Virus record (IMG/VR): IMGVR_UViG_3300030042_000123 | Span: 6,941 to 70,940 of that record | Strand: one strand, 5' to 3' | From: a virus | DNA length: 64,000 nucleotides | Part shown: positions 5,398 through 25,791 of the stretch, in pieces | Numbering within the stretch: position 1 is the stretch's first letter | How the letters are laid out: every line of letters begins with the position of its first letter | Notes under the pieces: model-generated | What the model saw: the letters and a program-made list of their open reading frames with translations, nothing else | Databases searched by the model: none | Told to the model about the DNA's origin: nothing | Position numbers and translations under genes: made by a program

Positions 5398-5998
5398 TCG
5401 ATGCCCCCTCTGTTTTCGGCTCCATGCAGGACGCACATCGAGATTGCTTGCCGTTTGGCATACTAGCCTTATTTCCAAACATGTCGGGAACAAGCCACTG
5501 GCAACACCCGTTACACCAAATTGTTTGACCGTTAATTTTGCTGTAAGTCCCATCCGTGGCAACCCGATTTCGTCCACAATACGTGTCGGTTTGAGTGTGA
5601 CAGTTGGGGCAAATTTTCTGTAGGTTTTCTCGGCGACAATCACCGCCATCGCCGTTTTTATGGTCAATTTGAAACCGTAAGGGTCTACCATTCCAAATTG
5701 TCCCCTGTCCGCAGAGCATACAAGTGTCTGGTGTCTGTTTGTAAAACCGATTCTTAGCCGCCCATACGTGCTTAGAGTCTTGGCAAAAAACCTCCGCATC
5801 ACTTAATTTACGACGACTTCGCCACTCACCTGTGAAATGATCTGTACTAAGCCCCAATTGTACGACCCATTTCTTCAAATTTGCCCCGTTATTGGCCTTT
5901 AACCCCAAAGCAAGGCACGCTCCCGTCCACGACTTTGCCTGTCGAACAGCTAGTGGGAGGTCTTCGAGTTTCCACTTTTTCGGTGTTTTTGGGGTCAT
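5387..5998 (-). CDS. HNH homing endonuclease
   Basis: CMLCG...LRFQIDHKNGDGGDCRRENLQKICPNCH. Confidence 0.85.
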   Translation of the reverse strand: MTPKTPKKWKLEDLPLAVRQAKSWTGACLALGLKANNGANLKKWVVQLGLSTDHFTGEWRSRRKLSDAEVFCQDSKHVWAAKNRFYKQTPDTCMLCGQGTIWNGRPLRFQIDHKNGDGGDCRRENLQKICPNCHTQTDTYCGRNRVATDGTYSKINGQTIWCNGCCQWLVPDMFGNKASMPNGKQSRCASCMEPKTEGASSGA

Positions 5999-6120: not shown

Positions 6121-8595
6121 ATGGGCGTACCAACAATCGGTCCAATTTTTACACTGACTCAGGTTGCCGCATCAGTTCTCCCCTATCCCGGGGCGACCAC
6201 TGGCACCACAGTCTACACAGGAACCATCACTGGCGGGGCAGCCACGGCATCGCAGCCGAACGGCGCTTACGCAGGCAAGGCTTTCAACATCACTGGCTTC
6301 GCCGCCCTCAATAACAACGGCGAATTCGTGTGCGTGCAGTCCTCCGCGACCACCCTTACCCTCAACAACCGCTACAGCACCGCTGTAGTTGCCGCAGGGC
6401 AGGCTCAGATATCCGTTGGGTACGGCAATCCTTCGCAGTACGCCTCCAAGGTCGAGAAACTCCAGTCCAGCAACCAAGGCGATAACGTCTACGTGAGCCC
6501 GCAGGCTGGCGATACCCTCATTGCCATCGCATTCGGCCTCAAGAGCCTCGATCCATTCGATCAGCTTCATGGCGCATCCCCGAGTTTCGGCTACCTTCAG
6601 GGCTTGAACGACTTCATGCCCACGGCTCCGACAATCTCGGACACCTCGAACGGCGGCAATAGCCCCAATGCGGTCACCGCTGAGTTGGGCTCGGCGTCAG
6701 AGTATGCCATCCTCGCCTATGCGGGTATCACGAACACGGGCGCATCCGTAGTCTCTGGCGGCAACATCGGTTCTGCCCCGACAACTGGTCCTGAGGCGGG
6801 CTTCACGTTCGTTCCTCCAGCAGCAATTGATAATGCCAGCGCGGGTGCAGCACGCACTGCGGGCAATGCAGCATTCACCTATTACAGTGGATTAACCCCC
6901 ACCCAGACTGGTCTCGCTAACCTCAGCACCAACAATGGTGGTGGTGGAGTAGGCGTCTACCACGCAGGTGTCTTCTCTGGCGGTACTTTGGACATCCCGA
7001 CTTCGATCACCCTCGATGCTCAGGGCAACCCGAACGCTTTGTTTGTGTTCATCGCAGCTTCGACTGTCACCCTTGAGAGCGGTGCATCTATCATCCTCGC
7101 AAACGGCGCACAAGCTGCGAACGTGGTCTGGGTCGTCGGAAGCTCCTTCACCTCTGTTTGGAATGGTATCTCATCGAACATGGTCGGCGTCATCCTCGCC
7201 TATACATCCATCACCCTTGGCGGCGGCACCCTCAACGGGCGTGCTCTTGCCGTAGGTGGGGGCGACGGGGCGGTCACTATCGCGTCGGCAACAGCTATCA
7301 CGACAACCGCTGGCACGGGCACCGCTATCGTCAACAACTGGGTGCTTTTGGCACACATCAACCTCGCGGACGCGGATTACAGCGGATACTCAATTCCTCC
7401 CGCTCCTAACTCCTCGTGGCCTGCCGCAGACTGGAGCCTCGACGGTTACTACCCGAGTCTCTACATCTGGGCTTGCTACTCCGCAAACGCAGGCACTTAC
7501 GCCGTGAACCTCAATTCCGTCTATCAGGACGGTGTGACGGCTCCACTTGATCTGGCGGCTGGTAAGCCAGTATTCGATGGCGGCATCAACTTCCAAGTCA
7601 TTGACTGGACGAACATGACGGGCGTATCGTTGGATGGGGTTTCAGTCGGCCTATCATCCGCTAACCCTGCGGTTGCACCAGCTTTCCAAACAACGCAGGC
7701 CAATGATCTAATCATCGCGGTCGGTCTTCAGAAGAGCGCGAACGGCTTGGGCGCTGGTGAAGGCTCGGCAATCAATACCAGCGGGCAACTGGGATCGGCT
7801 GGAAGCTACTCGATCCTCGCTGGCAGCGGCATCACCAATACTGGTGTGACCGTGGTCACGGGCGGCGTAGTTGGCTCATCCCCGACCACGACCATCGTGC
7901 CGGGTGTTGCTGTGTGGACAGTGGACAACGCTGACGCTCCTGCGGCTCAGGTCGCTGCAACGTCCGCGTACAACTACTTCGCTGGACTGCCTGCAACGGT
8001 ACTCAGCGCATCGTCGGCCAACCTTTCGACTCTGGGCAACTTGGGCGCAAGCCGCTATTCCGCTGGCGTCTACTCTGCTGGTTCCTCGATGGACATCCCA
8101 ACGAGCATCACGCTGGATGCACAGGGTAACCCGAATGCGACCTTCGTGTTCATCGCTGGTTCAACGACCACACTTGAGAGCGGTGCATCCGTCCTCTTGG
8201 CTAACGGTGCCCAAGCTGGCAACGTTATCTGGATCGTGGGTAGTTCCTTCACGCAGGTGGGCGACAACAACACGATGGTCGGTACGATTATCGCTTACAC
8301 GTCGATCACGCTGGACGGTGGAACCCTCAATGGACGTGCGCTGGCTCGCAACGGATCGGTCACCATCGCCGCAGCCGAGGCCATCAACACGGCAAACGCT
8401 ACGGGTGCCGCAGGAATGAACATCATCTCCAACGGCAAGCTGGTGGGCTCTGAAGCTCACTACTTGGTCACCTACGAAATTGGGGGCAGCCCAGTCGCAG
8501 GTTCCCCGCCAGTCGGCACTGGCGAGGTAATCGGCTTCGCCAACCCACTCGGTTACGAGACTCTCGTAGCTGTGGTCGCCTTGCAACACAGCTAA
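6121..8595 (+). CDS. Putative virion protein with two DUF3494 (ice-binding-like) domains
   Basis: Two copies of LGSA..Y.ILA..GITNTG ... ITLDAQGNPNA.FVFIA.ST.TLESGAS..LANGAQA.NV.W.VGSS ... TSITL.GGTLNGRALA (about 6682-7305 and 7783-8390) inside a beta-rich carrier; no signal peptide. Confidence 0.85.
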   Translation: MGVPTIGPIFTLTQVAASVLPYPGATTGTTVYTGTITGGAATASQPNGAYAGKAFNITGFAALNNNGEFVCVQSSATTLTLNNRYSTAVVAAGQAQISVGYGNPSQYASKVEKLQSSNQGDNVYVSPQAGDTLIAIAFGLKSLDPFDQLHGASPSFGYLQGLNDFMPTAPTISDTSNGGNSPNAVTAELGSASEYAILAYAGITNTGASVVSGGNIGSAPTTGPEAGFTFVPPAAIDNASAGAARTAGNAAFTYYSGLTPTQTGLANLSTNNGGGGVGVYHAGVFSGGTLDIPTSITLDAQGNPNALFVFIAASTVTLESGASIILANGAQAANVVWVVGSSFTSVWNGISSNMVGVILAYTSITLGGGTLNGRALAVGGGDGAVTIASATAITTTAGTGTAIVNNWVLLAHINLADADYSGYSIPPAPNSSWPAADWSLDGYYPSLYIWACYSANAGTYAVNLNSVYQDGVTAPLDLAAGKPVFDGGINFQVIDWTNMTGVSLDGVSVGLSSANPAVAPAFQTTQANDLIIAVGLQKSANGLGAGEGSAINTSGQLGSAGSYSILAGSGITNTGVTVVTGGVVGSSPTTTIVPGVAVWTVDNADAPAAQVAATSAYNYFAGLPATVLSASSANLSTLGNLGASRYSAGVYSAGSSMDIPTSITLDAQGNPNATFVFIAGSTTTLESGASVLLANGAQAGNVIWIVGSSFTQVGDNNTMVGTIIAYTSITLDGGTLNGRALARNGSVTIAAAEAINTANATGAAGMNIISNGKLVGSEAHYLVTYEIGGSPVAGSPPVGTGEVIGFANPLGYETLVAVVALQHS

Positions 8596-8613
8596 GTCGC
8601 TGGTCAGACTCAT

Positions 8614-8644
8614 CGGGCTCCTCTCGGGGAGCCCGTTTTATTTT
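8614..8644 (+). terminator. Rho-independent terminator
   Basis: CGGGCTCC-tctcgg-GGAGCCCG followed by TTTTATTTT. Confidence 0.85.
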
Positions 8645-8687
8645 GGAAAAACCTCAAAAAATTACGTGGGGTTTAGTATTATAACAC

Positions 8688-9293
8688 ATGGTCGGTGTTT
8701 ACTGCTGGGTAAATGTTGAAAACGGAAAGGTTTACATCGGGTCAACAACCGATGTGATTCGGCGGAAATATCACCACACCCGTCTTTTGAAAGTCCAAAA
8801 ACACCCCAATGTGCACCTTCAAGCCGCTTGGCTCAGATATGGGGCCAACGCTTTTGAGTTCGAACTTCTAGAACAAGTCGATGATCTTGTATGGCTTCGT
8901 GCCCGAGAACAGGCTTGGATCACCCGGCTTCAAGCGTGTGATCGAGAATTCGGTTACAACGTCACCAGTGACGCATGGGCACCCGTAACCTCGCCTGAGA
9001 CCATCGCCAAGATGAAGAAGGCTTGGATCGCACGAAAGGCTCGTGGGGACTACTACAAATTCACGACGGCGGATACTGTGAAAGGCAAGGCGGCTTCTGG
9101 CAAGAAAAACAAGGCTCGCTGGCAAGACCCTAAAATCAGAGCCGAAATGCAAGAAGCACAAAAGGCTGGTTGGACACCCGAGGTCCGAGCCGCACAAGCA
9201 AAACGTTTTGAACAACAAATCCTGAAAGACCCTACAATGCTCAGTCGAGGCGGCATCAAAGGCTCCGCTGTGCGTTGGGGAAAGGTGAACTAA
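8688..9293 (+). CDS. GIY-YIG homing endonuclease
   Basis: GVYCWVNVENGKVYIGST...R...H...HPNVHLQAAW..YG...FEFELLE...E.....FGYN. Confidence 0.88.
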   Translation: MVGVYCWVNVENGKVYIGSTTDVIRRKYHHTRLLKVQKHPNVHLQAAWLRYGANAFEFELLEQVDDLVWLRAREQAWITRLQACDREFGYNVTSDAWAPVTSPETIAKMKKAWIARKARGDYYKFTTADTVKGKAASGKKNKARWQDPKIRAEMQEAQKAGWTPEVRAAQAKRFEQQILKDPTMLSRGGIKGSAVRWGKVN

Positions 9294-9342
9294 AATTTCG
9301 GAAAACACGCCCTACTTCGACTCCATCACTTCTGCCCGCGCA

Positions 9343-10038
9343 ATGCTCCTAACCGATGAAGAGGCCCTCGAAGGGCAGACCCTTCTCAGTGCAGAGAGCG
9401 ACCCCAAGAAGAAAGAGGACCAGAAAATCCTCACCTACATTCAGGAGAATTTCCCAATGTTCCTGAAGATTTTACGTCTTCTGAAGAAGGAGGATCAGGA
9501 ACTCCTGCTGAGCTACTACCTGCTGAGCAAGACCCAAAACACACTGGCGATCATCCACCGCAGCACGCAGACGGTCTGCTCCTTCCGCATCCGCATGGCG
9601 GTCAAGGTGCTATGCGCGTTCATCCTGTATGGGGAGGAGTTCACCGAGGAGAAGATGAAGAACGTGTTGGTGCAGTCGAAACTTGAGAACAGCATCAAGA
9701 GCGTGCCCCTGAGCACGATCATTGACCTGTACATCAAAACCCGGAGCTTCCAGCGTGTTGCCGAAATTCACAAGCTCCACCGCCCTGACATCCGCCGTGC
9801 GATGAGTCGGTCAAGCAAGCAACTGCTGGAATCCAAAGACCCTGAAGAGAAGGCGTTGGGAGCGTTCATCCATTCTCTCATTGATAAAGCCAACCCAAGC
9901 GGCACGGGATTCTCGAAGCGGAAGGTTCAAAAATTGGGGAATATTTACCGAACCGATCCCGCAATCCTTGGGGACTTCCGAGTGAAAATCACAGACCCCG
10001 ATTTTGACCACATGTTCGTAAGTCGGGCAAATCGGTAG
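9343..10038 (+). CDS. Putative DNA-binding protein with tandem sigma-region-4-like HTH motifs
   Basis: LKKEDQELLLSYYLLSKTQNTLAIIHRSTQTVCSFRIRMAVKVL and RSFQRVAEIHKLHRPDIRRAMSRSSKQL resemble region-4-type HTHs. Confidence 0.55.
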   Translation: MLLTDEEALEGQTLLSAESDPKKKEDQKILTYIQENFPMFLKILRLLKKEDQELLLSYYLLSKTQNTLAIIHRSTQTVCSFRIRMAVKVLCAFILYGEEFTEEKMKNVLVQSKLENSIKSVPLSTIIDLYIKTRSFQRVAEIHKLHRPDIRRAMSRSSKQLLESKDPEEKALGAFIHSLIDKANPSGTGFSKRKVQKLGNIYRTDPAILGDFRVKITDPDFDHMFVSRANR

Positions 10039-10049
10039 TATTAAACAGT

Positions 10050-10205
10050 ATGGCGATTCGAAAGTGGCACACGACCGAGGTCAAGGACAACGATCTGGAA
10101 GACAGACTCAACAGCCTTCAAAGCCAAAGCTACACGATCTTCTCGGTAGTCAAGTCAGGACGTGGCGGCTTCAGCGAGTATTTCATGATCGTCTATTACG
10201 AATAA
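10050..10205 (+). CDS. Small hypothetical protein (51 aa), probably leaderless
   Basis: MAIRKWHTTEVKDNDLEDRLNSLQSQSYTIFSVVKSGRGGFSEYFMIVYYE; GTATTAA lies 5 nt upstream of ATG; fills the gap exactly. Confidence 0.65.
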   Translation: MAIRKWHTTEVKDNDLEDRLNSLQSQSYTIFSVVKSGRGGFSEYFMIVYYE

Positions 10206-10228
10206 GGAATTACGAATAAGGAGTAGGT

Positions 10229-10414
10229 ATGGATCAACTCACAGTCGATAAAATCATTCAACTTGGCCACGCCGGGAAGACTCAGTATGGCATCGCCACT
10301 GGTCTCAAGCTGTCGCAGACCGTGGTCGCTTATGTTCTCAACGAGGATTTACGCGGCACGAAGGCAACCAAGATCACCGAAGCCCTCAACAAGCAAGAAG
10401 CCCGTCTTGCCTAA
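10229..10414 (+). CDS. Small HTH-like protein
   Basis: RBS AAGGAG; GKTQYGIATGLKLSQTVVAYVL has HTH spacing. Confidence 0.6.
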   Translation: MDQLTVDKIIQLGHAGKTQYGIATGLKLSQTVVAYVLNEDLRGTKATKITEALNKQEARLA

Positions 10415-10484
10415 AAAGAAATAGGGTGCGGCTCTAGGCTCGCACCCCGATACTGGTTTTTCCGCGCTCACCAGCAAAACTATC
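10413..10484 (-). ncRNA. Candidate ~72-nt small RNA
   Basis: Directly downstream of a class-1 promoter, no ATG; hairpin TGCTGGT/ACCAGTA, then terminator hairpin GGGTGCG..CGCACCC plus TATTTCTTTTT. Confidence 0.5.
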
Positions 10485-10490
10485 ACTTAC

Positions 10491-10526
10491 ATTATACCCT
10501 ATCGGGGCTCGAAAAGGATAGGAATC
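10491..10526 (-). promoter_or_regulatory. Class-1 phage promoter (copy 1)
   Basis: GATTCCTATC-N18-GGTATAAT on minus strand. Confidence 0.75.
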
Positions 10527-10536
10527 CGAACTATTT

Positions 10537-10680
10537 TTAGAGCAGGTCGATGCGAGTATCGGCGTCCACCGCGTGCCAGCCGCCGTTGATGAAGCCCTCG
10601 TAGCCCAACCACTGGACCTCCAGCGGAGTCTTGCCATCCCGCTTCTTGCCTACACGGGCAGCGATGATGCGGGTCTCCAT
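10537..10680 (-). CDS. Small hypothetical protein (47 aa), weakly chromo-like
   Basis: METRIIAARVGKKRDGKTPLEVQWLGYEGFINGGWHAVDADTRIDLL; stops just before the class-1 promoter; start uncertain. Confidence 0.35.
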   Translation of the reverse strand: METRIIAARVGKKRDGKTPLEVQWLGYEGFINGGWHAVDADTRIDLL

Positions 10681-10761
10681 TCCGTGCTGGCGGACAACCG
10701 CTTTCTTGAGTTTCGTGCTCGTAGCGACCAGCCCATGCTCCGCAGCTTTGACATTGCACCA

Positions 10762-11061
10762 TTAGTTCGTCACCTTTGCTTCGAGTTCTACTTCTGCGTC
10801 AAACCTATCGTTGCTGGTAATCTTCGCGGCCTTGGGTGCGGCGGCGTGCTGCGCTCGAATCTGGCGGGCGTACTCGCCAAGAGAAATTCTCAGGATCGGG
10901 AGCGCCGTGGGCAGGACCGATGGCTTGTCCATGCACTCGCCGCTGATGACAGTCACGTCATGGGTAGCGGCGGCAACGGGGTCCGCTGGTTTGATAGGCG
11001 TGCGCGGCTCTTGCGCGAAGGCTGGAACCGCAAGCATCAGGCTGAAAAGCAATATCCGCAT
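10762..11061 (-). CDS. Small secreted protein
   Basis: Signal peptide MRILLFSLMLAVPAFA|Q. Confidence 0.7.
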   Translation of the reverse strand: MRILLFSLMLAVPAFAQEPRTPIKPADPVAAATHDVTVISGECMDKPSVLPTALPILRISLGEYARQIRAQHAAAPKAAKITSNDRFDAEVELEAKVTN

Positions 11062-11070
11062 GTCAGTCTC

Positions 11071-11274
11071 CTAGTTGAGTAAGGAAGCGATTTCGACGTT
11101 CTGTTCCTGCCCAAACTGCCGCAGGTTGGCGACGGCGATGCTCAGGGATTTCTTCGGCATCCGTAGTTGGTAGCCGTAGCGACCGTTGGCTTTGAGTTCA
11201 TCCAGCCGAGCCAATTTCGCGATGTAGGCCGCGTACAGTGCTTCGAACGTGTTGACCTTCTCGATGAACGTCAT
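11071..11274 (-). CDS. Hypothetical protein
   Basis: ATGA overlap with upstream ORF; RBS GGAGG. Confidence 0.7.
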   Translation of the reverse strand: MTFIEKVNTFEALYAAYIAKLARLDELKANGRYGYQLRMPKKSLSIAVANLRQFGQEQNVEIASLLN

Positions 11275-11495
11275 TTCGCCTCCACTGCGAAGTAAAGGTC
11301 ACCCCGCTTCGTGAGTTTTCTTGCGGCAACCAGAGCCGACATGACCTGCTCAAATTGTTCGAGGGAGCAGCCATGCGTCATCAGGGCTGCATAAAGAGTT
11401 CCAGCAGGCGTACCAAGTTTTCCGCTGGATGCCACAACCGCGATCAACGCATCGCAAATCTCTTTCAGGGCATTCGTTACTTGGGTGCTTGTCAT
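11271..11495 (-). CDS. Hypothetical winged-helix-like protein, leaderless
   Basis: ATG 6 nt after the TATAAT of a class-1 promoter; helical pattern ending LVAARKLTKRGDLYF. Confidence 0.65.
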   Translation of the reverse strand: MTSTQVTNALKEICDALIAVVASSGKLGTPAGTLYAALMTHGCSLEQFEQVMSALVAARKLTKRGDLYFAVEAK

Positions 11496-11501
11496 GTCCC
11501 T

Positions 11502-11537
11502 ATTATACCCAAAAATGGGTCAGAAACGATAGGAATT
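11502..11537 (-). promoter_or_regulatory. Class-1 phage promoter (copy 2)
   Basis: AATTCCTATC-N18-GGTATAAT. Confidence 0.8.
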
Positions 11538-11567
11538 TTGGACTATATTTGGTTTGTTTTCAACAGG

Positions 11568-11828
11568 TTATACGCCGTGGTAGCCTTCGCCGCCTGCGGC
11601 GGGAACGGCTTGACGTTTCTCTTCGTAGGGGTCGTAAGTGGTTAAGTCTTTGATGGAGCCTTCTTCGACTATCTTCAGGGAGGAGGTATCGACGATGTGA
11701 TACCAATCGTCGTTGCCCATCACGGATTCCACTTTGGCACGGGCTGCCTCAATGGTGTCGGCTGTGCCTTGGAAATCACTCCAGCCGCCGCCCGGGTAGT
11801 ATTCTTCACCTGTGAAGACGAAGAACAT
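11568..11828 (-). CDS. Hypothetical phage protein
   Basis: F.F.GEEYYPGGGWSDF..TAD..E.A...DWYHIVD; abuts the stop of the upstream gene. Confidence 0.7.
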   Translation of the reverse strand: MFFVFTGEEYYPGGGWSDFQGTADTIEAARAKVESVMGNDDWYHIVDTSSLKIVEEGSIKDLTTYDPYEEKRQAVPAAGGEGYHGV

Positions 11829-12902
11829 TTACATGCCTTCAGCGGGAGCAGTCGTGATCGGTGCGGGACGCGACTTACGCGGCTGTCCAATCGGCTTTAC
11901 TGCACCGCCGCTCGGACCATTCTCGCCCATCACGTAGCCCATGAAGCGTTCCTTCATGAAACGTGGGTTGGATGCGCGTAGTGTGCTGCACAATCCCTCG
12001 GCGATGTTGCGCTTCTCATCGGGACCGACGCTCATGTTCTTGATTGCGTCTGCCAGAGCGATGAAATCCTTCTTGCTCATCGCGGAAAGCTTGTTGCCAG
12101 CTTCTTTACCCTGAGCCTGCGGAATTTCCTTCACGAACTTCTCAGCACTTTCGGAGTGCGGTGCGATGGTGTACTTCTGCTTGGTCGGTTCCTGTGCACC
12201 AGAACCCTGTTTGTTGCCCTCAGCCTCGCCCTGAGCCTGCGGCATCTTGGCCTTCTGCGGTGCCTTGGGGTTGCCGGATGGGTCACGGTCGGTGCTGAAA
12301 GCGTCGGAGCCAGAGGCGGCTTCCTTCTCTGCTTCAGGTTCCGCGTCGTCGGCGGGTTCGGCTGCGGCTTCAGCTTCAGTCTCTTCCTTGGCTTCAAAAT
12401 CGGGACCTTCGGACTCGGCTACAGCTTCGCCCTTGTCTTCACCAAGCTCAAGTTCGTGCTTGCCTTCGTCGGTAAATGCCTTCTCAGCAGGCGTGGCACC
12501 CAAGTCGATACCCAGAGCTTCGGCGGCGATTTCCATCGCGGCTGCCTGCTCATCCAAGCCCTTATAGGCTTGCTGGAGGGCGTCAGCCAGAATATCTGGC
12601 TGCTCTTCGGCGATACGGATGAACTTCTTGCCGTACTTTTGGGCGGCTGCAACGCGGATTTTGGCGGGAGCATCCTTGGCGATTCTCGCGAGACCGAGGT
12701 TGTGACGGAGGGCTTCCATGCTGTCAGCCTGACGAGCGGTCTTGGCGACAAGCTCGTCGAGGACCTTGGCGAACTTCGCCGGGGACTTCGCTGTTTCACG
12801 CATTTTCGCGTATTGAGCCACTTTTTCGGTCTTACGGGCTTCGCGGCGGGCTACAATAGCCTTGCGAACTGCCTCACGGTCTGCCTTCTTTACGTTTGCC
12901 AT
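11829..12902 (-). CDS. Putative internal head protein with K-X-A motifs
   Basis: Likely start ATG 12902 (RBS GAGAGG); coiled-coil N-terminus, acidic middle, KEA|A, KQG|S, KLS|A junctions; shares a 25-aa motif with 36591-38057. Confidence 0.6.
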   Translation of the reverse strand: MANVKKADREAVRKAIVARREARKTEKVAQYAKMRETAKSPAKFAKVLDELVAKTARQADSMEALRHNLGLARIAKDAPAKIRVAAAQKYGKKFIRIAEEQPDILADALQQAYKGLDEQAAAMEIAAEALGIDLGATPAEKAFTDEGKHELELGEDKGEAVAESEGPDFEAKEETEAEAAAEPADDAEPEAEKEAASGSDAFSTDRDPSGNPKAPQKAKMPQAQGEAEGNKQGSGAQEPTKQKYTIAPHSESAEKFVKEIPQAQGKEAGNKLSAMSKKDFIALADAIKNMSVGPDEKRNIAEGLCSTLRASNPRFMKERFMGYVMGENGPSGGAVKPIGQPRKSRPAPITTAPAEGM

Positions 12903-12976
12903 GGTGTTTCCCTCTCTACAATAGGTGTTTGGTAGGCGTGTTTTTCCAAGTATTCTGCGGCTAATCGTTCCATGGT

Positions 12977-15900
12977 TTATTCTCCAGAGACGGGGGTTTC
13001 CTTCATGGCGCGAGCCACGCTGAGTACCAAACCCTGCTTCGTCTTGGTGCCCCATGCCGTCTGCACACGATCTTTGTTCGACGGGTCACGTTTCAGGGAG
13101 CCCCACAGCATTTCGATCAGTGGGTGGTTCTCGTACTGATTCTGCACGTCGCGTTGGAGTCCGCCGTCGCCGGGTGCTGCCTGCTTCTCTTCGCTACCCT
13201 TACGCTTTGCGGGCGGCTTTGGCTGCTTGGCTTTAGCTGCGGGCTGATCGAGCACGCTCATGGCGGCATCGACCGCCGCGTTGGTGTCTTCCCACCAGAA
13301 CGGCTCGCTGAGCTTCTGATTGTCCTCATTGTAGACCTGAAGCTCCGCTCCGTCGCCGCCTTCTGTCGCTTGAATCCATAGACGGACGGTGCCCTTCATC
13401 GGAATGGCAGGGGCATAGGTGCCCTGTCCGCGAATCTCGGAGCCCACAAGGACATACGGACCCTGATACTGGTCGAACGCCTTGACTGTGCCGCCCAGTG
13501 CCTTCGCGATGGCGTGGTGCATCGGCCATGCTTCGGCGTCATCGGCTTCAGACTGGCTCATCTCGCCCGTGGCTTCCTTTTTATTCGGACCAAACGAATC
13601 GGCTTCCCGCTTGTGTTCTTTCCACTGTTCGAAATTCAGTTTGGTGTCGCCGTTGGCAACTTCATACTGCCAGTCTTTATGGTCAGTGTCCTCGGACGAA
13701 CTCGTTGGGCTGAACTTATCCGCTTCTTCTTTGTACATTTTCCAGTCCTCGAAATTAAGCTTCGTGTCGCCATTAGCGACCTCATACTGCCAGTCTTTGT
13801 AGTCGGTGTCCTCAGCGGAAGACTGAAGTGGAAGGTCCATCTGATTCGGATCAGGTTCGGCAGGCGGGGCAATCTCGCTGCCCTCGTCCATTTCGAACAG
13901 GTTGCCGCCGTACTGCAAGTTGACCTTGTTGCCATTCATCAGTTCTTCAACCATGTCCTCGATCTGGTAACGCTCGTGCCAGTAGACGTTACCGTCTTGG
14001 TCGCTCATGAGTTCGCCGGATGTCAGTGCTCCAATGTCCTCGGGGTTGACCATCTCCCAGCCATTGGTGAAGAAGTCCTCCATGAGTTCGAAGATATTCG
14101 GCTTGTTAATCATCTCGCCGATACCCTGCACATCGCTGAGCAGGTTGGCGGTGGGCTCCAGCGTGATGCCGTACTTGTTGTAGACGACCTTGACGTTGAA
14201 CCCCTCGTCTTCGCCAGACGTGGGCTGTTCAGTCGCCGCTACTTTGTCCTCGCTGCTGTGACGAGGTGGGATTCCCTCGTTAGCCAGATCGAGGTCTGAC
14301 TTTTCGGTGAGACCCAACTGTGCGGGGGTCTTGAGCTTGCCGCCGCGTTGCGGCATTGCGTTGATCTTGTCCGATGCGTCGGATGATTCATGTTCTTGCA
14401 TGTCCTTCTCCTCAGGATGATACCCGTAAAAGTCCATCCATTCCTTAATGTGTGGCTCATCGCCGCGACCCTTCGCCAGAGCCTCGTCAACCATCGACTG
14501 CATGTACGTCTGACCGTCCGTGGTCAATGGGTTCTCAAGGAAAATGTGGCAACCAGAGCAGTGCTCGGGTGCATCGGATTCTTCCTCGAAGAACGGCCCT
14601 TTCGGGTAGTTGTCCGAATCATACGAAGCCTCGTCCATCACGTTAGGCGGCGTCTTACCCTCCGCGTCCAGCGTGGCAGCAATTTCTGTCGCACACTTCT
14701 CGCACCACACGTCCGCTTGATAGATGTACGTGCCGTCGTTGGAACCACGGATACCACTGTTGGCACCCGGCTCGAACGCTTTCTTTTTCTTTCCAATTAC
14801 ACCAAGACCCCTCAGACGGGTTTTATCGGCTTCGCCGAACTCAGGTGTCTCAATGGGTACATCGGGCTGAGGTATAACTTCTTCGACACCAGCGGCTTCC
14901 AACAATTCCACATCGCCGGGATCAATGTAGTCGGCAAGGCCCTGTAATTCCATCAACTCTCCCTGACTGATCCGCTCGGCGCGGAGTTCGCCTCGGAGGT
15001 ATTCCAAACGACCCTGAATTTCCGATGTCTCCTCCTCATCAAGCCACGCTTTCTTCGCCGAACCAGTCTTGGCGCATGGAGCTTTCGAGGCTTCCTGCAT
15101 ACTCATACCGCAACGCTTGCAGTGACCATCGGTGTCAGTGTCCAGATCGTGAGTGCTGATGTTAGTCAAGCGTGCTCCGTCCGCTTCCTTCTCGATAGAA
15201 GCCTCAATCACGTTCTCTGCCTTCGTCGCCAGCGATGACGGGATGGGGAGGGTGGAAGACTCATGGAAATTTTCTTGGCAAGAGTCGTCGCCGTTGTCAA
15301 TCTGTTCGAGATCAAGATCGCCTTCGTCGCCCATGTGGTGACCTACGTCAACAACCGACCACGTGGCTCCGCACGGCCCACAAACAATCCACCACTGCCC
15401 GTGCTCAAAGTACGGATTGCAGTTCTCGTGAATCTCGGTCTCGGGGTGCGTCTGTGCCAACTGTGCTACGCGAGCTTCCATCTCTGGCGTGTTCTGTTCG
15501 GTCAGCAATCCCGCACTCACCTTGTTGGGCGTCTCAGTAACACCGCCGCTTGATCTCTCGGTATGACCCTGCTCGGTATAGTTCGGGTCGTCGCCGACAA
15601 TTTCACGCAGGGCGTTCTCCGCGTCTTCACGATAGTCGTCGATGTCGCTCAGCGAGCCGTCCTCTTCGCGGCGGAAAGCGTACTCAAAATCCATCATGAG
15701 CTTGGAGCAGGCGATGTACTTGTCTTCGCCCTTGCCCGTGCGGGTGTAACGCTCGTTGAACACGTCCGCCAGCCCGCCCTCCTTCTTGCCTTCCATGAAA
15801 TACTCGAAGGCATCTTCGAGAATGCTTGCTGTTTTGCTGGTCATGTGCCACTTCTTTCCGGGAAGTTCGGGTACAACTGTCTTCCGCATTGGTTTCTCGT

Positions 15901-18883
15901 CTTCGGTCGTTGGTTGCTGACCCGGCAGAGCAACGGCCGTTCCGGGTGGTGGAGCTACTACTGTCTGTGGTGCGGCGGCAGGTGCGGCGGGACGTGCTGC
16001 GGGAGCCGCTGCCGCTGGAGCCGCTGTCTTCCTCGCAATAGTCATCGATACAACCTTCTCGCCTTCCTTCATGTACTTTTTCACGGCACGTTCGGCAGAA
16101 CCGTAGTCCACACCTGAAACCTGCTGTTCACGTTGCTGACCCTTGGGATCACGCAGGAGGACTTTCCATTTACCCGCTACCTTCGGTCCCGCCGTGCCTG
16201 ATGGGTACAGCTTACCGAGTGTATCATTCCAAACCTTTTCCTTCTGCGGACAATCGATCTTGTGGTGATTCGTGACCGACCCGCAGCACTCTAACGTCTT
16301 CAATGATGTCGCAATCTTTGGAGGAGCCCCAGCCGAGCCGCCTTCTTGATAAAATTCTTCACGCCACAGATCGCCTGCTCCGCGCACATCGTCCGACCCG
16401 CCCCCACGCCCAGCGAGTTCCGCAGCCTCTTTCGATCCTTGCGTGCGTCCATGAGGCAGGCGTCCAGTGTCACCCGGCGTAATGCTGGGACGAATCGCAT
16501 CCTGATCGGCGTTCACGAAGTCGTGCCCGATCATGCCTTCTTTTTCAAAGCCGGGGTCAGTCCACTCCGCACCCTCAGTTTCAAACTCTTGAAGCGTCAA
16601 TTGCTGCCCATCGTCTTTCATGACGGGTTGAGGTGTGTGCCCCTTGGCATACGGGATCATCGCTTCGACCGTGGGCTGAGGCTTCGTTGTGTCCTCACCG
16701 AAAGCGTTTGGAATCTCTCCCCACTCGTACCACATCTCCGTATTGTAAACCCACATGTGCTCCGTGGTCTCATCCGTCACATAAATAAACCAGTCCTCGG
16801 CGAGCACAACGCGCAATCCGGGAGCCGCGTACTGAGGACCTGCCGCGATAGGCTTAAAGCCGCCCTCACTGGGAAGCTTTTGAAGGGTGGGCTGCTCTTC
16901 ACCGTCCGCTTTCTTCAGGGTCTCATCAATGGACTCGCCACGACGAGCTTCCATCTTCTTGATTTTATCGCCGTACTTGCTTGCGTTCTTGTTCTCGGGG
17001 CAATCACAGCCCTCGCAGATGCAGTTCTTTTTCAGTCTATCGCAACCATCGCAGTATGGCTCCTGTACAGAAGATAAAATCTTGACCGTATTGTCAGCAT
17101 CACCCGTGCCTTGTTCCAGACGGATGTACTCGATAGTCGCATCGGTGCATGGCTGGCAGTAGCGAGTCTTGTATCCGTAAATCTCAAGCATGTGAGCGGC
17201 GGGGTTCGGACATCCGCCCGCCTTGTGACCCAGCGGGCACTCTTCCCACTCACAGGAGCATCGACCGAGGTCAGCCGCCGTGTGTTTGGAATTGTAATTC
17301 CGCAGAGCTTGGAAAGCCGTATCGTAATTGCGCTTCGCCGCCTGCCACTCGGGGGTAGCTTTGGTAGCATCGGGCGTCATGCCCGTTGGCCCTTTGGGGA
17401 ACTTCTTGAGTTCCTTGCTGAAACGATCTACGTCCTGTTCCAGCTTCGTCTGTTCCTCATTGATCGGTCTGTCGGCGTGTCCGTAAGCAGCTTCCTTCGG
17501 ATCGTTGATACCCTTGACAATGCCGTGCTCCCAGTTCTTGCCGCACTTGTTGCACTTGGCGGTCTCGAAGTCCGTGGGCATCAAGCCGTAATCGTCAGAG
17601 CCGCAATGGGGGCACTTCGGCTTTTCCGCAGCCGTGCGACAGTTGGAGCAGGAGTTCACGTTGAAAGCAATCTTCGGAGCCGAGCAACGGCAGGTCTGAA
17701 CGCTACCACACTTGCACACTTGCTTGCGGTGGTGGTTCGAGGCCGTCTTATCGCCTCGTGTCTCACCGTCCAGCAAATCTGCTTTGTTCGGGCAATAGCA
17801 GCCGTTCTCATCGTTGCCGCATTGCGGACAATACTCGGATGCGATGCACCCAGCAGCCTTAAACTTGACCTTCTCGGACGAAGCCTTGGCGGGACGTGCC
17901 TTCGCCTTTGGCGGCGGTGGGAACATGTGTTGCAACAGGTCCGCAAGCTGGTAGGAGTTGCCCAGTTGAGTCTTGTTCTCGTAAACGAAGTCGCGGAGCA
18001 AGCCGCCGATCTTGTCTCGGTACTGCTTCAGGGAATCGAAGCTCAAACCTGTGCGGTGAATCCACTCTTGAGTCAGGTCGCTGATCTTAACGTCGCCACT
18101 CTCGGTTTGCTGAGCTTGATCCCAGTAAATCTTGAGCAGGGCGGCGTAATTGGGGGCGGACTTCGGAGTCTCCTTGGTCTTCACCCACGCTTCGAACTTC
18201 TCGATAAACTGATTGATGTCGCGGTCGGACTCGGACTGACCGACGCCCGGGGTTGTAGCGTGCTCTTCGGTGTCGAGGATGTTGTAGGTCTCGCCCTCTT
18301 CTCCGGGTTGTTCCATGCTCATCTCTTCGGGGCGAATCAAAGCAATCGCGTCCTGCTTCGCGTGATCCTTGGCGTAGTAAATGAACGTGCTCTTGAGGTA
18401 GGAACTGACCTGCTCAGCGATGGGCTTCTTCTGGGTTTCCTTGTCGAAGCCTTTGACCTTCTCGGCAAAGTTTTCCAGCAGCTTCTTGCCGTTCTTCTGC
18501 GTCCGCTCGAACAGAAGGGAGACGACCGCTCGGTAGATCACCTCATCCTGAATGTCTTGGTCTTGGGTTACGGAGTTGAGAATCGACGAGTAGATTTTGG
18601 TGAGGTACTTCGCCCAGTCCATCTTGGGGTCAGTGGGTAACCCCGCCTGCTCGATGAGCGAGTTGACAATCGCGGTCAGGTCTTTGTTGAAGGCAAACTT
18701 CAGGAGGGACGCGAAATGCATCCAAGCCCCGGCAATCGGGGAGAAGTTTGCGGGGGTTGAACACGGTCGCCCCTGAAGGTCGGCCAATTTGAAGGCACAC
18801 TCTCCCGCTATTTTCAGCGTAGACGAAATGCGGTAGGCTTTTCCATCAACACCGTACACGATTTGTCCTGCGTTAAGGCGCAC
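12977..18883 (-). CDS. 1968-aa modular polyprotein (putative virion cargo) with K-X-A linkers, many Cys-rich modules and a sigma-like N-terminal module
   Basis: Single long ORF with GTG start and GAGG RBS; short unrelated modules separated by KTA/KEA/KVA/KIA/KKA/KQA. Confidence 0.75.
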   Translation of the reverse strand: MRLNAGQIVYGVDGKAYRISSTLKIAGECAFKLADLQGRPCSTPANFSPIAGAWMHFASLLKFAFNKDLTAIVNSLIEQAGLPTDPKMDWAKYLTKIYSSILNSVTQDQDIQDEVIYRAVVSLLFERTQKNGKKLLENFAEKVKGFDKETQKKPIAEQVSSYLKSTFIYYAKDHAKQDAIALIRPEEMSMEQPGEEGETYNILDTEEHATTPGVGQSESDRDINQFIEKFEAWVKTKETPKSAPNYAALLKIYWDQAQQTESGDVKISDLTQEWIHRTGLSFDSLKQYRDKIGGLLRDFVYENKTQLGNSYQLADLLQHMFPPPPKAKARPAKASSEKVKFKAAGCIASEYCPQCGNDENGCYCPNKADLLDGETRGDKTASNHHRKQVCKCGSVQTCRCSAPKIAFNVNSCSNCRTAAEKPKCPHCGSDDYGLMPTDFETAKCNKCGKNWEHGIVKGINDPKEAAYGHADRPINEEQTKLEQDVDRFSKELKKFPKGPTGMTPDATKATPEWQAAKRNYDTAFQALRNYNSKHTAADLGRCSCEWEECPLGHKAGGCPNPAAHMLEIYGYKTRYCQPCTDATIEYIRLEQGTGDADNTVKILSSVQEPYCDGCDRLKKNCICEGCDCPENKNASKYGDKIKKMEARRGESIDETLKKADGEEQPTLQKLPSEGGFKPIAAGPQYAAPGLRVVLAEDWFIYVTDETTEHMWVYNTEMWYEWGEIPNAFGEDTTKPQPTVEAMIPYAKGHTPQPVMKDDGQQLTLQEFETEGAEWTDPGFEKEGMIGHDFVNADQDAIRPSITPGDTGRLPHGRTQGSKEAAELAGRGGGSDDVRGAGDLWREEFYQEGGSAGAPPKIATSLKTLECCGSVTNHHKIDCPQKEKVWNDTLGKLYPSGTAGPKVAGKWKVLLRDPKGQQREQQVSGVDYGSAERAVKKYMKEGEKVVSMTIARKTAAPAAAAPAARPAAPAAAPQTVVAPPPGTAVALPGQQPTTEDEKPMRKTVVPELPGKKWHMTSKTASILEDAFEYFMEGKKEGGLADVFNERYTRTGKGEDKYIACSKLMMDFEYAFRREEDGSLSDIDDYREDAENALREIVGDDPNYTEQGHTERSSGGVTETPNKVSAGLLTEQNTPEMEARVAQLAQTHPETEIHENCNPYFEHGQWWIVCGPCGATWSVVDVGHHMGDEGDLDLEQIDNGDDSCQENFHESSTLPIPSSLATKAENVIEASIEKEADGARLTNISTHDLDTDTDGHCKRCGMSMQEASKAPCAKTGSAKKAWLDEEETSEIQGRLEYLRGELRAERISQGELMELQGLADYIDPGDVELLEAAGVEEVIPQPDVPIETPEFGEADKTRLRGLGVIGKKKKAFEPGANSGIRGSNDGTYIYQADVWCEKCATEIAATLDAEGKTPPNVMDEASYDSDNYPKGPFFEEESDAPEHCSGCHIFLENPLTTDGQTYMQSMVDEALAKGRGDEPHIKEWMDFYGYHPEEKDMQEHESSDASDKINAMPQRGGKLKTPAQLGLTEKSDLDLANEGIPPRHSSEDKVAATEQPTSGEDEGFNVKVVYNKYGITLEPTANLLSDVQGIGEMINKPNIFELMEDFFTNGWEMVNPEDIGALTSGELMSDQDGNVYWHERYQIEDMVEELMNGNKVNLQYGGNLFEMDEGSEIAPPAEPDPNQMDLPLQSSAEDTDYKDWQYEVANGDTKLNFEDWKMYKEEADKFSPTSSSEDTDHKDWQYEVANGDTKLNFEQWKEHKREADSFGPNKKEATGEMSQSEADDAEAWPMHHAIAKALGGTVKAFDQYQGPYVLVGSEIRGQGTYAPAIPMKGTVRLWIQATEGGDGAELQVYNEDNQKLSEPFWWEDTNAAVDAAMSVLDQPAAKAKQPKPPAKRKGSEEKQAAPGDGGLQRDVQNQYENHPLIEMLWGSLKRDPSNKDRVQTAWGTKTKQGLVLSVARAMKETPVSGE
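13590..13815 (-). repeat. Tandem 120-nt (40-aa) repeat inside the polyprotein
   Basis: EDTDYKDWQYEVANGDTKLNFEDWK... / EDTDHKDWQYEVANGDTKLNFEQWK... Confidence 0.9.
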
Positions 18884-19484
18884 AGTTCACCTCTCGCCGA
18901 CCCTTGTTCCAAGGGACTCTACCTTGAGCAGCCGACTTCATTTTCTGTATCGTGCTTTCGGAGTGCCTTCTGTCTTTGAACCTAGTACCGAGGTTTGCTA
19001 TTAGCTGCTCTTTTGAAGTTACACAGGGCATTTCACTAAGGGTTTTGCTGATCTTATCGCAAACATCTTGGGGAACAGTGCGCCCAAACATCGACTTGCT
19101 AATCTTGTCACGAACAGCTTGGGGGATGGGCTTTCTGTACTGGTGATGGTTTACCCCGCTCATCTTCCGACGAGTCTCTTCATTGGGGATTAACCCGTCA
19201 CCCCCCATCGTCAGGTTATAGCCGTTCTCAGGTTTATGGGATTGATGCAGGATAATGAAGAAGGTCTCCATTTTACGGAGTTCTTCCTTGGTCTTGGCTT
19301 GGTGCAAGACCTCGACGGTAAAAGCCTCTGCACCGTACTTGCGGATGGCGTTGTGAAAGTAGAATGGACTACCCCTGCGGGCTCTGTACCGATGCTCTTT
19401 CCACCGACGATTAACGCTGGAGCCTTCCCACTTGCCGATGTAGACCTTGCCGTTGACCGTATTTGTAATGCGGTAAACAAGCAT
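18873..19484 (-). CDS. GIY-YIG homing endonuclease with NUMOD3-like repeats
   Basis: LVYRITNTVNGKVYIG, FHNAIRKYG, GYNLTMGGDG, HSESTIQKM. Confidence 0.88.
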   Translation of the reverse strand: MLVYRITNTVNGKVYIGKWEGSSVNRRWKEHRYRARRGSPFYFHNAIRKYGAEAFTVEVLHQAKTKEELRKMETFFIILHQSHKPENGYNLTMGGDGLIPNEETRRKMSGVNHHQYRKPIPQAVRDKISKSMFGRTVPQDVCDKISKTLSEMPCVTSKEQLIANLGTRFKDRRHSESTIQKMKSAAQGRVPWNKGRREVNCAP

Positions 19485-19499
19485 TGCCAGACTCCAAAG

Positions 19500-19733
19500 T
19501 TAGTCAGTGATCGGATCGTTAGGGTCGCCGCCAGTCTTTTCGTCTTCCTTCAGGACTGACTCAAGGGTCTTCATGTAGTCTTCGTGATCCTCGAACGCCT
19601 GAGGATCGTGGGACTGCCCTGCGGCTGAGTCCTTTGCGTCCTTCTGTGCTACCTTGAGGCCTAGACGACCGAGTTCGCCCTTGTAGAGCGAGTTCATTGC
19701 TGATGCGTCTGCTGCTGCGATTTTCTTTGCCAT
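19500..19733 (-). CDS. Small acidic putative head protein
   Basis: Likely start ATG 19733 (RBS GGAG); begins MAKKIA|AADA (K-X-A). Confidence 0.55.
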   Translation of the reverse strand: MAKKIAAADASAMNSLYKGELGRLGLKVAQKDAKDSAAGQSHDPQAFEDHEDYMKTLESVLKEDEKTGGDPNDPITD

Positions 19734-19828
19734 TTTAAGCTCCGAAGGGAGGAATACCCCCTGCAAAGGGGGACTGTAGTTGAGTTTCGTTATACTTGCG
19801 AAGGTACGCTGTCTCATGACGACCTTCC

Positions 19829-21673
19829 TTAAACGCTAAACATTACAACAGGCACGACTGGCTCTCCCCCGAACGAGAATGGCGTAATCGTGCCCAGAGT
19901 GGTGGGCATAACCCCACCGCCTGTGATTGCATTTGCGGCTGAACCAAATCGGACGGGTGGGACTGGAGACGAGTACGGAAACGACCATTGATTCAGGAGG
20001 TTCGCCATCGAAGAGGAATCCTGATGGCTGAACACGGAACCGCCGTTTGAGGCATCGTAACTCCCCCACGCGAACCAGTAAATTCCCGAAGGGAGAGTGA
20101 CAGGCCCAACCGCAACCTGTTTAGTCCATTGGCTGTGATTTGACGTGTCGAGAAAATTTGCTCCCGCGTCAATCAGTTTCGTATTTCCATCCGCTGAGTA
20201 GAGAGCACACGTCATCCAACCGCCAGCACCCGAACCTGTGACCGTGGTAGCCGTGACGTGGGATATGACAAACTCAACTTCGAGAATGACTTGGATTACA
20301 TTCACGACATTGTTAGTGAGAATGCTTCCGCTAGTCCCAACTGTGCTATAGTCCTGACCGCCAAGAAACCAACCCAGTCCTGCTGTCTGGAACTTTGACC
20401 CACCACCTGCCGCCGTTTCCCACGCGGGTACACCTGCAACCACCGTCAATACTTGACCAGAAGTACCGATTGGTAGTCGCTCGGGGCCGAGCACGGCTGG
20501 GGAACCAGTCAAGCCCTCGTAGATCATATCCCCAACGGTGGTCATGGGGTTTGCAAAACCTGAACTCGGAACCGTAGCAACGAATTCAGTTCCGTTGAAA
20601 GTAAGGACAGCCCCAGTCGGTATTCCTGATGGTGGGGCGGTGATGGTGGTAGCAGTATTCATGGTAACGGCGGCGTTGGCTAGTGCCCGGCCTGCCAACG
20701 ACCCACCGCCCAATGTAATCGACGAGACAGCGAGAATGTTACCCACAGTAACAGCACCCGGACCAATCGTTGTCCATGAGCTTCCAACGACCCAAACTAC
20801 GTTAGCAGCTTGAGCACCATTGGCTAGTGTGATCGTTCCAGCAATAGCCTGAGTGATTGTCGAAGCGGTCGCGTAGAATACGAACACAGCGTTCGGACTG
20901 CCCTGTGCATCAAGAATGATTGGTGTGCTGATTGCAAGGCTCGATCCACTCTTATAATTGCCCGCATAGTAGGTGCCAGTCGGAGCACCCGCTGAATGCT
21001 GGGTGCCCATGTCTGCTGTAGTGAGTGTCTGGATGAAGGTCAAACCTTCGTAATGAGTGATTGCCGTGTTGAGGTCCGTCAAGGCTTGAGATGCGACAGG
21101 CGAGATAACTGTCGTAGGCGGTGTCAAAGTCCATGGCGGGGTGCCTGCGGTGATGGTTGTGCCTCCGACATTTCCACCGCTGATGACCGTGCCCGCACCA
21201 TCCGAGTTCGTGACCGTGGTTCCCAGTACGGCGTAAGTTGCTGCCGTAGCTAATTGCGTGGTGACGGGAGACGAAGGGCCTGAGGGAAGGGACACATCGG
21301 ACAACGAAGCCAAAGTCGTAGTAGCCCAAGCTCCGTTATTAAAAATGTAAAGCGCGTTTCCGCTGCCCACAGCCCAACCATTTTTCGGTGTGTAGTATTC
21401 CCATTCACCGCTTGGAACCGCTGGATTGTCGGTTGACCAGTAGGCGAGATTGTTAGCTTGAGCCGACCACACACCCGTAGGACTGCTTCCAATGATGTAG
21501 GAGTCTCCGTTGGCGGGGGACACGGGCGGTGTGTTCAACCCGACGCTGATAACGTTCGACTCAACGAGTGCCTGAAGCCCGCGCAGCAACGCTTCGCCTG
21601 CGGTGTAATAGCCGTCACCGAGGGCTGCGCTAACGAATAACTGCGGAATTTTGGGGCCGAAGTGGATGCTCAT
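19829..21673 (-). CDS. Tail-fibre-like protein: DUF2793-like N-terminus + DUF3494 ice-binding-like domain
   Basis: N-term TPPVSPANGDSYIIGSSPTGVWSAQANNLAYW...PKNGW (DUF2793-like); DUF3494 at about 20640-21256; LPIGTSGQVLTVVAGVPAWE fibre segment. Confidence 0.8.
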   Translation of the reverse strand: MSIHFGPKIPQLFVSAALGDGYYTAGEALLRGLQALVESNVISVGLNTPPVSPANGDSYIIGSSPTGVWSAQANNLAYWSTDNPAVPSGEWEYYTPKNGWAVGSGNALYIFNNGAWATTTLASLSDVSLPSGPSSPVTTQLATAATYAVLGTTVTNSDGAGTVISGGNVGGTTITAGTPPWTLTPPTTVISPVASQALTDLNTAITHYEGLTFIQTLTTADMGTQHSAGAPTGTYYAGNYKSGSSLAISTPIILDAQGSPNAVFVFYATASTITQAIAGTITLANGAQAANVVWVVGSSWTTIGPGAVTVGNILAVSSITLGGGSLAGRALANAAVTMNTATTITAPPSGIPTGAVLTFNGTEFVATVPSSGFANPMTTVGDMIYEGLTGSPAVLGPERLPIGTSGQVLTVVAGVPAWETAAGGGSKFQTAGLGWFLGGQDYSTVGTSGSILTNNVVNVIQVILEVEFVISHVTATTVTGSGAGGWMTCALYSADGNTKLIDAGANFLDTSNHSQWTKQVAVGPVTLPSGIYWFAWGSYDASNGGSVFSHQDSSSMANLLNQWSFPYSSPVPPVRFGSAANAITGGGVMPTTLGTITPFSFGGEPVVPVVMFSV

Positions 21674-25774: not shown

Positions 25775-25791
25775 GTTGTTCTTTTTCTCCT

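Follow-up and report, generated by a model that had tools for sequence, protein, structure and literature searches.

DUF3494 is the commonest microbial ice-binding fold, known from studies of secreted and cell-surface proteins. The solved examples EfcIBP (6EIO) and AnpIBP (7BWX/7BWY) are free proteins secreted by cold-adapted cells, and SfIBP_1 of Shewanella frigidimarina (PDB 6BG8), a proposed ice adhesin, carries its DUF3494 domain on tandem immunoglobulin (Ig)-like domains at the bacterial cell surface. In viruses, three genes annotated as PF11999 'ice-binding-like' have been described on Arctic viral contigs, where they were read as auxiliary genes for host cryoprotection (Rahlff et al. 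2024, PMC11515562). Here, we describe a 64,000-nucleotide stretch of phage DNA (hereafter the window; positions 6941-70940 of the 120,343-base IMG/VR record IMGVR_UViG_3300030042_000123) in which three DUF3494 domains are built into two proteins, namely two domains in an 824-amino acid (aa) carrier protein (P0001) and one in a 614-aa protein of tail-fibre type (P0002).

The phage domains share the Pfam family and the fold of EfcIBP and AnpIBP, and conserve the segments of the so-called B-face, but have no signal peptide and stand inside larger proteins, twice in loops. A fourth DUF3494 domain (75.5 bits on PF11999) was noted outside the window, at aa 847-1070 of a 2098-aa protein encoded at positions 102053-108349 (-) of the record; this protein has five He_PIG Ig-like domains, and its architecture resembles that of bacterial 'ice adhesins'. 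As in SfIBP_1, which is both a sequence and a fold match (6bg8) to the phage cassettes, the solenoid is held out on a larger structure; SfIBP_1, however, is a bacterial cell-surface protein, whereas the platform here would be the virus particle and the cassettes are internal insertions. The Arctic viral genes share with this phage a virus-encoded PF11999 domain and a cold habitat, but were reported with no structural-protein context, insertion or cassette exchange (PMC11515562), whereas in this phage each of the four DUF3494 domains forms part of a large multi-domain protein of structural type and none stands alone. For the fibre-type protein, the closest counterparts in cultured phages are DUF2793 proteins such as Orf31 of Pseudomonas phage PAE1 and the JBD30 baseplate protein (8RK3 chain E), to which the N-terminus of P0002 is homologous over 116-120 aa at 35-39% identity; unlike P0002, these proteins are short (161-225 aa) and have no ice-binding domain. 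A tblastn search of the second P0001 cassette against 50,697 GenBank phage records gave no match at E 1e-3, and in the searchable literature no paper was found that combines DUF3494 with phage structural proteins.

The three DUF3494-type solenoids had been proposed in an earlier reading of this DNA from its letters and translations (the sequence-only reading), and Pfam bears them out. PF11999 (Ice_binding) matches P0001 twice (E 2.7e-59, 200.8 bits) and P0002 once (E 4e-26, 92.4 bits), against a Pfam cut-off of 28.7, and the domain limits, taken as the envelopes of the hidden Markov model (HMM) matches (aa 179-398 and 546-760 of P0001, aa 133-350 of P0002), agree with those proposed to within a few codons. 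Pairwise identity among the three domains is 46-63%, and all are in canonical order. The AlphaFold2 (AF2) model of the P0002 domain, with a predicted local distance difference test score (pLDDT) >95, consists of a helix (195-209) and stacked strands, and superposes in Foldseek on solved ice-binding proteins, including FfIBP, with template modelling (TM) scores of 0.75-0.83 (7bwy, 0.83; 6eio, 0.77), so that structure prediction upholds the assignment. The same domain matches 6eio and 7bwx in sequence, and the second cassette of P0001 matches EfcIBP (6eio) at E 1.1e-26. Because the P0001 cassettes are 46-51% identical to the modelled fibre cassette, they are predicted to share its ice-binding protein 1 (IBP-1) fold, a discontinuous beta-solenoid with one long alpha-helix. 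Neither protein begins with a basic or hydrophobic, signal peptide-like N-terminus in a crude hydropathy and charge check, in agreement with the sequence-only reading; release of these domains would come with the virion at lysis.

The layout of the carrier protein gene is as follows.

6121..8595, + strand: P0001 gene, 824 aa, an N-terminal beta-barrel and then a beta-sandwich carrier that bears two DUF3494 cassettes in its loops (open reading frame (ORF), Pfam)
6121..6435, + strand: small N-terminal beta-barrel, aa 1 to ~105 (AF2 model of the insert-less homologue P0126)
6436..6654, + strand: carrier segment a, aa ~106-178, ending in 'PTISDTSNGGN' (alignment with insert-less homologues)
6655..7314, + strand: DUF3494 cassette 1, aa 179-398, at carrier site 1 (Pfam, HMM envelope, clean gap in insert-less homologues)
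7315..7755, + strand: carrier segment b, aa 399-545, starting with 'NNWVLLAH', the conserved carrier core (profile search)
7756..8400, + strand: DUF3494 cassette 2, aa 546-760, at carrier site 2 (Pfam, best stretch 565-752; 6eio match)
8401..8595, + strand: carrier segment c, aa 761-824, 'GKLVGSEAHY...NPLGYE', and the stop codon (alignment)
8614..8645, + strand: intrinsic terminator-like hairpin immediately behind the P0001 gene, 9 pairs (7 G-C) and a T run (consensus scan only)

A profile of the carrier, built on the inter-cassette region (aa 397-545) of eight orthologues, was searched against 1.84 billion representative proteins and returned 45 representatives, 19 of them at E <1e-30. The sequence-only reading had proposed looking for relatives that lack the inserts, and these were found: most of the 45 are without DUF3494, and among the 42 that were new to the profile search the domain was detected only in P0128 and P0125. 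In the insert-less full-length carriers that were aligned (P0126, P0137, P0141, P0151, P0153, P0155, P0157 and P0163), the chain is continuous through both sites, running at site 1 from 'P.ISD' through a few residues to 'N.W' (pattern 'P.ISDxxx|N.W'), and at site 2 from 'VGLQKS.N' through a short loop to 'GKLVGSEAHY'. Conserved blocks shared with these members flank each P0001 cassette on both sides, and the P0001 carrier, once spliced, is 60% identical to insert-less P0126, the model of which (mean pLDDT 81.7, predicted TM score (pTM) 0.75) comprises the small N-terminal beta-barrel and then a beta-rich domain of ~270 aa. The insertion of cassettes can be taken as close to certain, and those of P0001 are demonstrated to be true in-loop insertions into a beta-sandwich carrier. 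The arrangement of the DUF3494 fold is suited to such a role, as its first and last coils lie side by side, which gives adjacent termini and makes the fold an easy passenger (PMC11645318); because of this adjacency, a cassette could project from a loop and leave the carrier undisturbed.

The sequence-only reading had held that two of the domains split a carrier motif. For the 824-aa protein this stands, the split 'SD..GN.W' motif being real because its flanks abut in the insert-less carriers, where the motif is continuous; for the fibre it does not, as described below. The intact copy of the motif that had been cited for comparison, at 27244-27882, was rejected as a comparator, having no detectable homology to the carrier family (BLASTP against P0001, E 0.94; hhalign against insert-less carriers, probability 1.9%). 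The 212-aa ORF at this position (-) is an orphan among head genes: only its own near-copy was found among 5.8 billion proteins, and it has no family match.

Both loops of the carrier are general graft points. For instance, P0018, P0037, P0043, P0044 and P0050 retain cassette 1 at site 1 and have site 2 filled by a copy of the N-terminal barrel, 90-100 aa in length (BLASTP E down to 4e-29), and the alignment places a different small domain at site 1 of P0129 and P0149. Beyond plain inheritance, comparison of the sequences indicates that cassettes are exchanged among sister phages, because the carriers of P0005 and P0019, which are 83% identical and have site-2 cassettes that are 85% identical, hold site-1 cassettes that are only 52% identical. 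Cassette 1 of P0001 is closer to the P0019 cassette at site 2 (80% identity) than to the one at site 1 of that protein (only 56%), and the site-1 cassette of P0125 is 69% identical to the DUF3494 cassette of the 2098-aa protein of this phage. In a tree of 144 domains, a sample biased by the query, both P0001 cassettes fall with the site-2 cassettes of P0005 and P0019 in a five-row clade with a support of 98 by the Shimodaira-Hasegawa-like approximate likelihood ratio test (SH-aLRT). When the site-1 cassettes of the three closest carriers are constrained to one clade, the tree is rejected by the approximately unbiased (AU) test (delta log-likelihood (lnL) 135, p 0.006), a weaker test here in that the group was named after the tree was seen. 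The repeated insertion proposed from the sequence is thus not only supported but extended, to loops that take other domains and to sister phages that exchange cassettes.

The fibre-type protein presents a different case, and is laid out as follows.

19829..21673, - strand: P0002 gene, a 614-aa DUF2793 fibre (ORF, Pfam, PHROG tail-fibre families)
21314..21673, - strand: DUF2793 N-terminal anchor, aa 1-120 (PF10983)
20624..21277, - strand: fibre DUF3494 domain, aa 133-350 (Pfam, AF2, Foldseek, 6eio/7bwx sequence match)
20384..20623, - strand: fibre neck, aa 351-430, with an intact 'RLPIGTSGQVLTVVAGVPAW' repeat (motif census)
19829..20383, - strand: distal C-terminal part, aa 431-614, and the stop codon (AF2 pLDDT <50)

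The DUF2793-like N-terminus noticed in the sequence-only reading is recognised by PF10983 on aa 30-116 (E 2.4e-15, 56.6 bits; cut-off 27), and no Pfam or PHROG family matches the distal part (aa 431-614). Over its first 116 aa, P0002 shares 64-69% identity with P0066 and P0062, two DUF2793 proteins that lack an ice-binding domain and are encoded on syntenic sister contigs. P0066 is the positional orthologue in a sister phage, at a locus where identity is 85% for the head protein and 65% for the upstream 341-aa gene, and which likewise has an HNH gene and, downstream, a giant gene; after the anchor, P0066 continues into fibre repeats and a Peptidase_S74 domain, with no ice-binding domain. In turn, aa 102-421 of P0002, comprising the linker, the ice-binding domain and the neck repeats, match P0040, a protein with an unrelated N-terminus, as a single block at 48% identity. 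These comparisons support module replacement behind a conserved DUF2793 anchor as the probable origin of the fibre, the module already containing the ice-binding domain.

An intact repeat, 'RLPIGTxGQVLTV..G.P.W', follows the ice-binding domain in P0002 and is present in 11 other proteins, and the P0002 junction resembles this repeat when the domain is removed. That the domain interrupts a repeat, as had been proposed, is nevertheless unproven, because relatives with the domain and the neck differ before the domain and keep a complete repeat after it, and the split fibre repeat was not retained as a candidate.

Display of the cassettes on the virion is probable, although the two proteins differ in how readily they can be placed there. 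The earlier proposal that both are virion proteins has good support for the fibre, from PHROG tail-fibre families and baseplate fold matches, and for the carrier is inferred from 'minor tail protein' fold matches only. That P0002 is a virion protein is well supported: it matches the tail-fibre families phrog_35360 and phrog_7049, its anchor matches the baseplate chains 8rk3_E (JBD30) and 8gtc_S (R4C) with a Foldseek probability of 0.98 at low TM, and the cultured DUF2793 proteins adjoin large tail structural genes. For P0001 a virion location is plausible from the predicted fold. The carrier has no PHROG family, a search of the ESM Atlas by features returned unnamed viral clusters only, the P0126 model has no Foldseek match in the PDB at E 0.001 or better, and a wide VIA-align search of the carrier against the PDB gave only weak C1q/TNF-like rows (Z 5.6-6, root-mean-square deviation (rmsd) ~8 Å). 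Against BFVD, the P0126 model matches 21 phage proteins at E <1e-3, with a probability of 1.0 and TM up to 0.66, among them one 'minor tail protein' of Mycobacterium phage Gaia, with additional minor tail proteins, from Mycobacterium and Gordonia phages, at E 1.5e-3 to 8e-3, these names resting on annotation. The model also matches cellular surface proteins, one of which has a Peptidase_S74 fibre domain, and its barrel domain aligns in VIA-align (Z ~7) with generic six-stranded barrels, including phage head-to-tail and endosialidase barrels.

With regard to the ligand, the ice-binding site of AnpIBP is its B-face, which is made of six-residue strands with small outward residues, and the mutants S153Y and T156Y lose most activity (PMC7277481). 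The phage strands that match this face in a HMMER alignment to 7bwx read '[AG]STxT', 'SS[WF]T', '[TA]SITLG' and 'GAVTI', and hardly vary among 20 phage cassettes whose sequences otherwise share 36-74% identity with the first cassette. By alignment, in which the register of one strand is uncertain, A/G/S/T make up ~80% of the predicted outward B-face positions, as compared with 53% of the whole domain, and a Thr ladder is seen; Ser and Thr are kept in the phage cassettes at the positions of AnpIBP S153 and T156. These features are compatible with ice binding and with an invariant ligand, and ice may be the relevant ligand of the cassettes, although we hold this somewhat short of probable.

The explanation that we favour, tentatively and with not quite even confidence, is that solenoid cassettes with an ice-binding B-face have been grafted onto outer proteins of the virion. 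Self-contained DUF3494 solenoids of the IBP-1 fold would be carried as cassettes on outer particle proteins, each projecting from its loop with the carrier intact, and one virion would presumably display many copies. The flat B-face, rich in Thr, Ser, Ala and Gly, would still bind ice, and multivalent display could then tether particles to the walls of ice or brine veins, or limit the recrystallisation of ice around them, in seasonally frozen peat.

Several observations weigh against this explanation. The B-face motifs are shared by the whole family, and their conservation may reflect no more than folding. DUF3494 has also been assigned to substrate binding and adhesion in temperate organisms (PMC12337378). 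Swapping of cassettes between close relatives is what would be expected of host-recognition modules, and not of a domain with an invariant ligand. The P0001 gene stands alone on the opposite strand and does not belong to the head-fibre gene string; the location of its product in the particle is predicted rather than proteomic. Lastly, the insertion sites were placed by alignment, and that they are 'loops' is a reading of the secondary structure in the P0126 model.

Ig-like decoration domains on other phages are thought to raise adsorption, and the alternative that survives best gives the cassettes a similar task, as accessory adhesins on the virion that raise adsorption by binding not ice but, for example, the host envelope or capsule polysaccharide, extracellular slime, or plant-derived polymers of peat. 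This is a serious possibility, if still a doubtful one. The cassettes stand in proteins of tail-fibre type, and their nearest relatives carry fibre repeats, discoidin domains or, in the case of the fibre cassette, a K1-lyase C-terminal domain typical of tailspikes. Cassettes at site 1 have been swapped between near-identical carriers. P0001, encoded between a glycosyltransferase operon and a 231-aa gene, as it is in two sister phages, is 60% identical to its counterparts there, whereas the 231-aa neighbour is 94-97% identical, and such faster divergence is usual for host-range determinants. This neighbour (9343-10038, +) is itself of note as a very conserved protein of no known family.

The distribution of the domain can also be counted in favour of a non-ice adhesin. 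A scan of IMG/VR with two conserved peptide patterns, derived from 20 phage-type cassettes, gave at least 121 confirmed stretches with similar domains, from many samples; 80 loci were kept, with 82 ORFs of 284-2083 aa in which the domain is N-terminal, in the middle or C-terminal, and of which two have signal peptide-like starts. In the tree, the phage-type domains form a clade of their own (SH-aLRT 99), apart from the cellular multi-domain ice-binding proteins with their subtilisin, Big-like and type IX secretion system (T9SS) contexts. Among the IMG/VR contigs, several (L039, L041, L043, L061 and others) were seen to encode proteins of ~1630-1710 aa that start with 'MSNALQ..GAQ.DKQ' and have DUF3494 near the C-terminus, a recurrent family in which the domain of uncultured phages has yet another structural setting.

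Other features argue against a non-ice adhesin. Strong conservation of the putative binding face among cassettes with 36-74% identity to the first one is unlike typical receptor-binding surfaces, and this face is without the aromatic platforms common in carbohydrate-binding modules. The fibre cassette is proximal, which leaves a separate distal domain available for receptor binding. To our knowledge, moreover, every PF11999 domain assayed so far binds ice.

An unlikely alternative is that P0001 is not a virion protein but a phage-encoded cryoprotectant of the host, made in the infected cell and either released at lysis or retained inside. Viral PF11999 genes have been read in this way (Rahlff et al. 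2024, PMC11515562), and the organisation of the gene, which forms a unit by itself on the opposite strand, is followed by a terminator-like hairpin of its own and lies beside the glycosyltransferase operon, away from the head-fibre string, would suit such a role. P0001, however, has no signal peptide, its carrier resembles in fold both phage 'minor tail proteins' and cellular proteins that have a Peptidase_S74 fibre domain, its domain architecture is that of a display scaffold, and this reading is inapplicable to the DUF2793 fibre. Very unlikely is a role for the solenoids as rigid spacers or stabilising bulk in fibres and decoration proteins, with no ligand and kept because the fold tolerates insertion, as might be proposed from the adjacent termini that make the fold an easy passenger (PMC11645318) and from the unrelated small domains that the same two carrier loops also take, since sister phages have four to six copies per genome, the same fold repeatedly replaces the same fold at site 1 and one face of the cassette is conserved, all of which argues for selection on a surface function.

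Turning to the phage itself, the families by which it can be identified in the window are a major head protein, a prohead protease and a tail sheath. CheckV estimates the source record at 36% completeness and the sister record IMGVR_UViG_3300038465_000091, of 223.5 kb, at 71%; from the latter, the window phage and its sisters are jumbo myophages with genomes of roughly 320 kb. The four DUF3494 domains in three proteins of this phage thus come from 36% of a genome, and the sister record has six across five ORFs. One of these, a 479-aa DUF3494 ORF (L006:6248-7687), was seen as an extra gene directly after the orthologue of the 824-aa protein.

Many homing-type genes of the GIY-YIG, HNH and endonuclease VII families are placed between the structural genes of the window.

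24815-25930: major head protein (phrog_2522, E 2e-44)
8688-9293, 18873-19484 and 26529-27278: GIY-YIG genes
23491-23829: HNH gene
4960-5802 and 24298-24702: endonuclease VII genes

These homing-type endonuclease genes are unusually dense, and two of them flank genes that bear ice-binding domains. Such endonucleases may help the exchange of cassettes or modules between sister phages.

Three further genes of the window were noted. A 1968-aa ORF downstream of the fibre gene (12977-18883, -) has no Pfam family; over its N-terminal 430 aa it shares 29% identity with a giant ORF that occupies the corresponding position in sister contig L092. In a 1221-aa protein (38946-42611, -), the tail-sheath homology is confined to aa 871-1217, and the first 870 aa, without a family match, constitute a very large extra part. 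A nicotinamide phosphoribosyltransferase is encoded at 53113-54549 (-; phrog_448, E 7e-140).

The habitat of the window phage was taken from the labels of public runs that hold a 3.6-kb stretch with its fibre gene. This stretch is present in 20 runs, of which 19 are labelled peat metagenome, and the study of the remaining, unlabelled run also files permafrost metagenomes. A syntenic sister contig bears the record name WOOD18-1_SAMN07124888, which we take to belong to the Stordalen Mire permafrost-thaw data set. A peat habitat is compatible with ice binding by the cassettes. Returning to the explanation favoured here, its furthest extension is that the particles themselves are ice-binding objects, such that a jumbo phage lineage of permafrost-associated peat would carry many solenoids on its tail proteins by means of a loop-grafting scaffold; this is conceivable but doubtful.

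Whatever the ligand, a known domain is found here in a new structural and evolutionary context, as a mobile cassette in probable virion proteins. The insert-less relatives fix the graft points exactly, which makes the carrier a clean natural example of domain insertion into loops, and P0001 offers a ready scaffold for display engineering. If the cassettes bind host or organic surfaces, the DUF3494 fold would have a non-ice function, which would be relevant to the many DUF3494 proteins from non-freezing habitats. If instead they bind ice, this would represent the first case of a virus particle with cryo-adaptation built in, and a multivalent ice-binding nanoparticle of natural origin. The arrangement provides a testable hypothesis on the persistence of phages in freezing soils, in which multivalent affinity for ice would keep the virion at the surfaces of ice and brine veins where hosts concentrate, protect it through freeze-thaw, or both.

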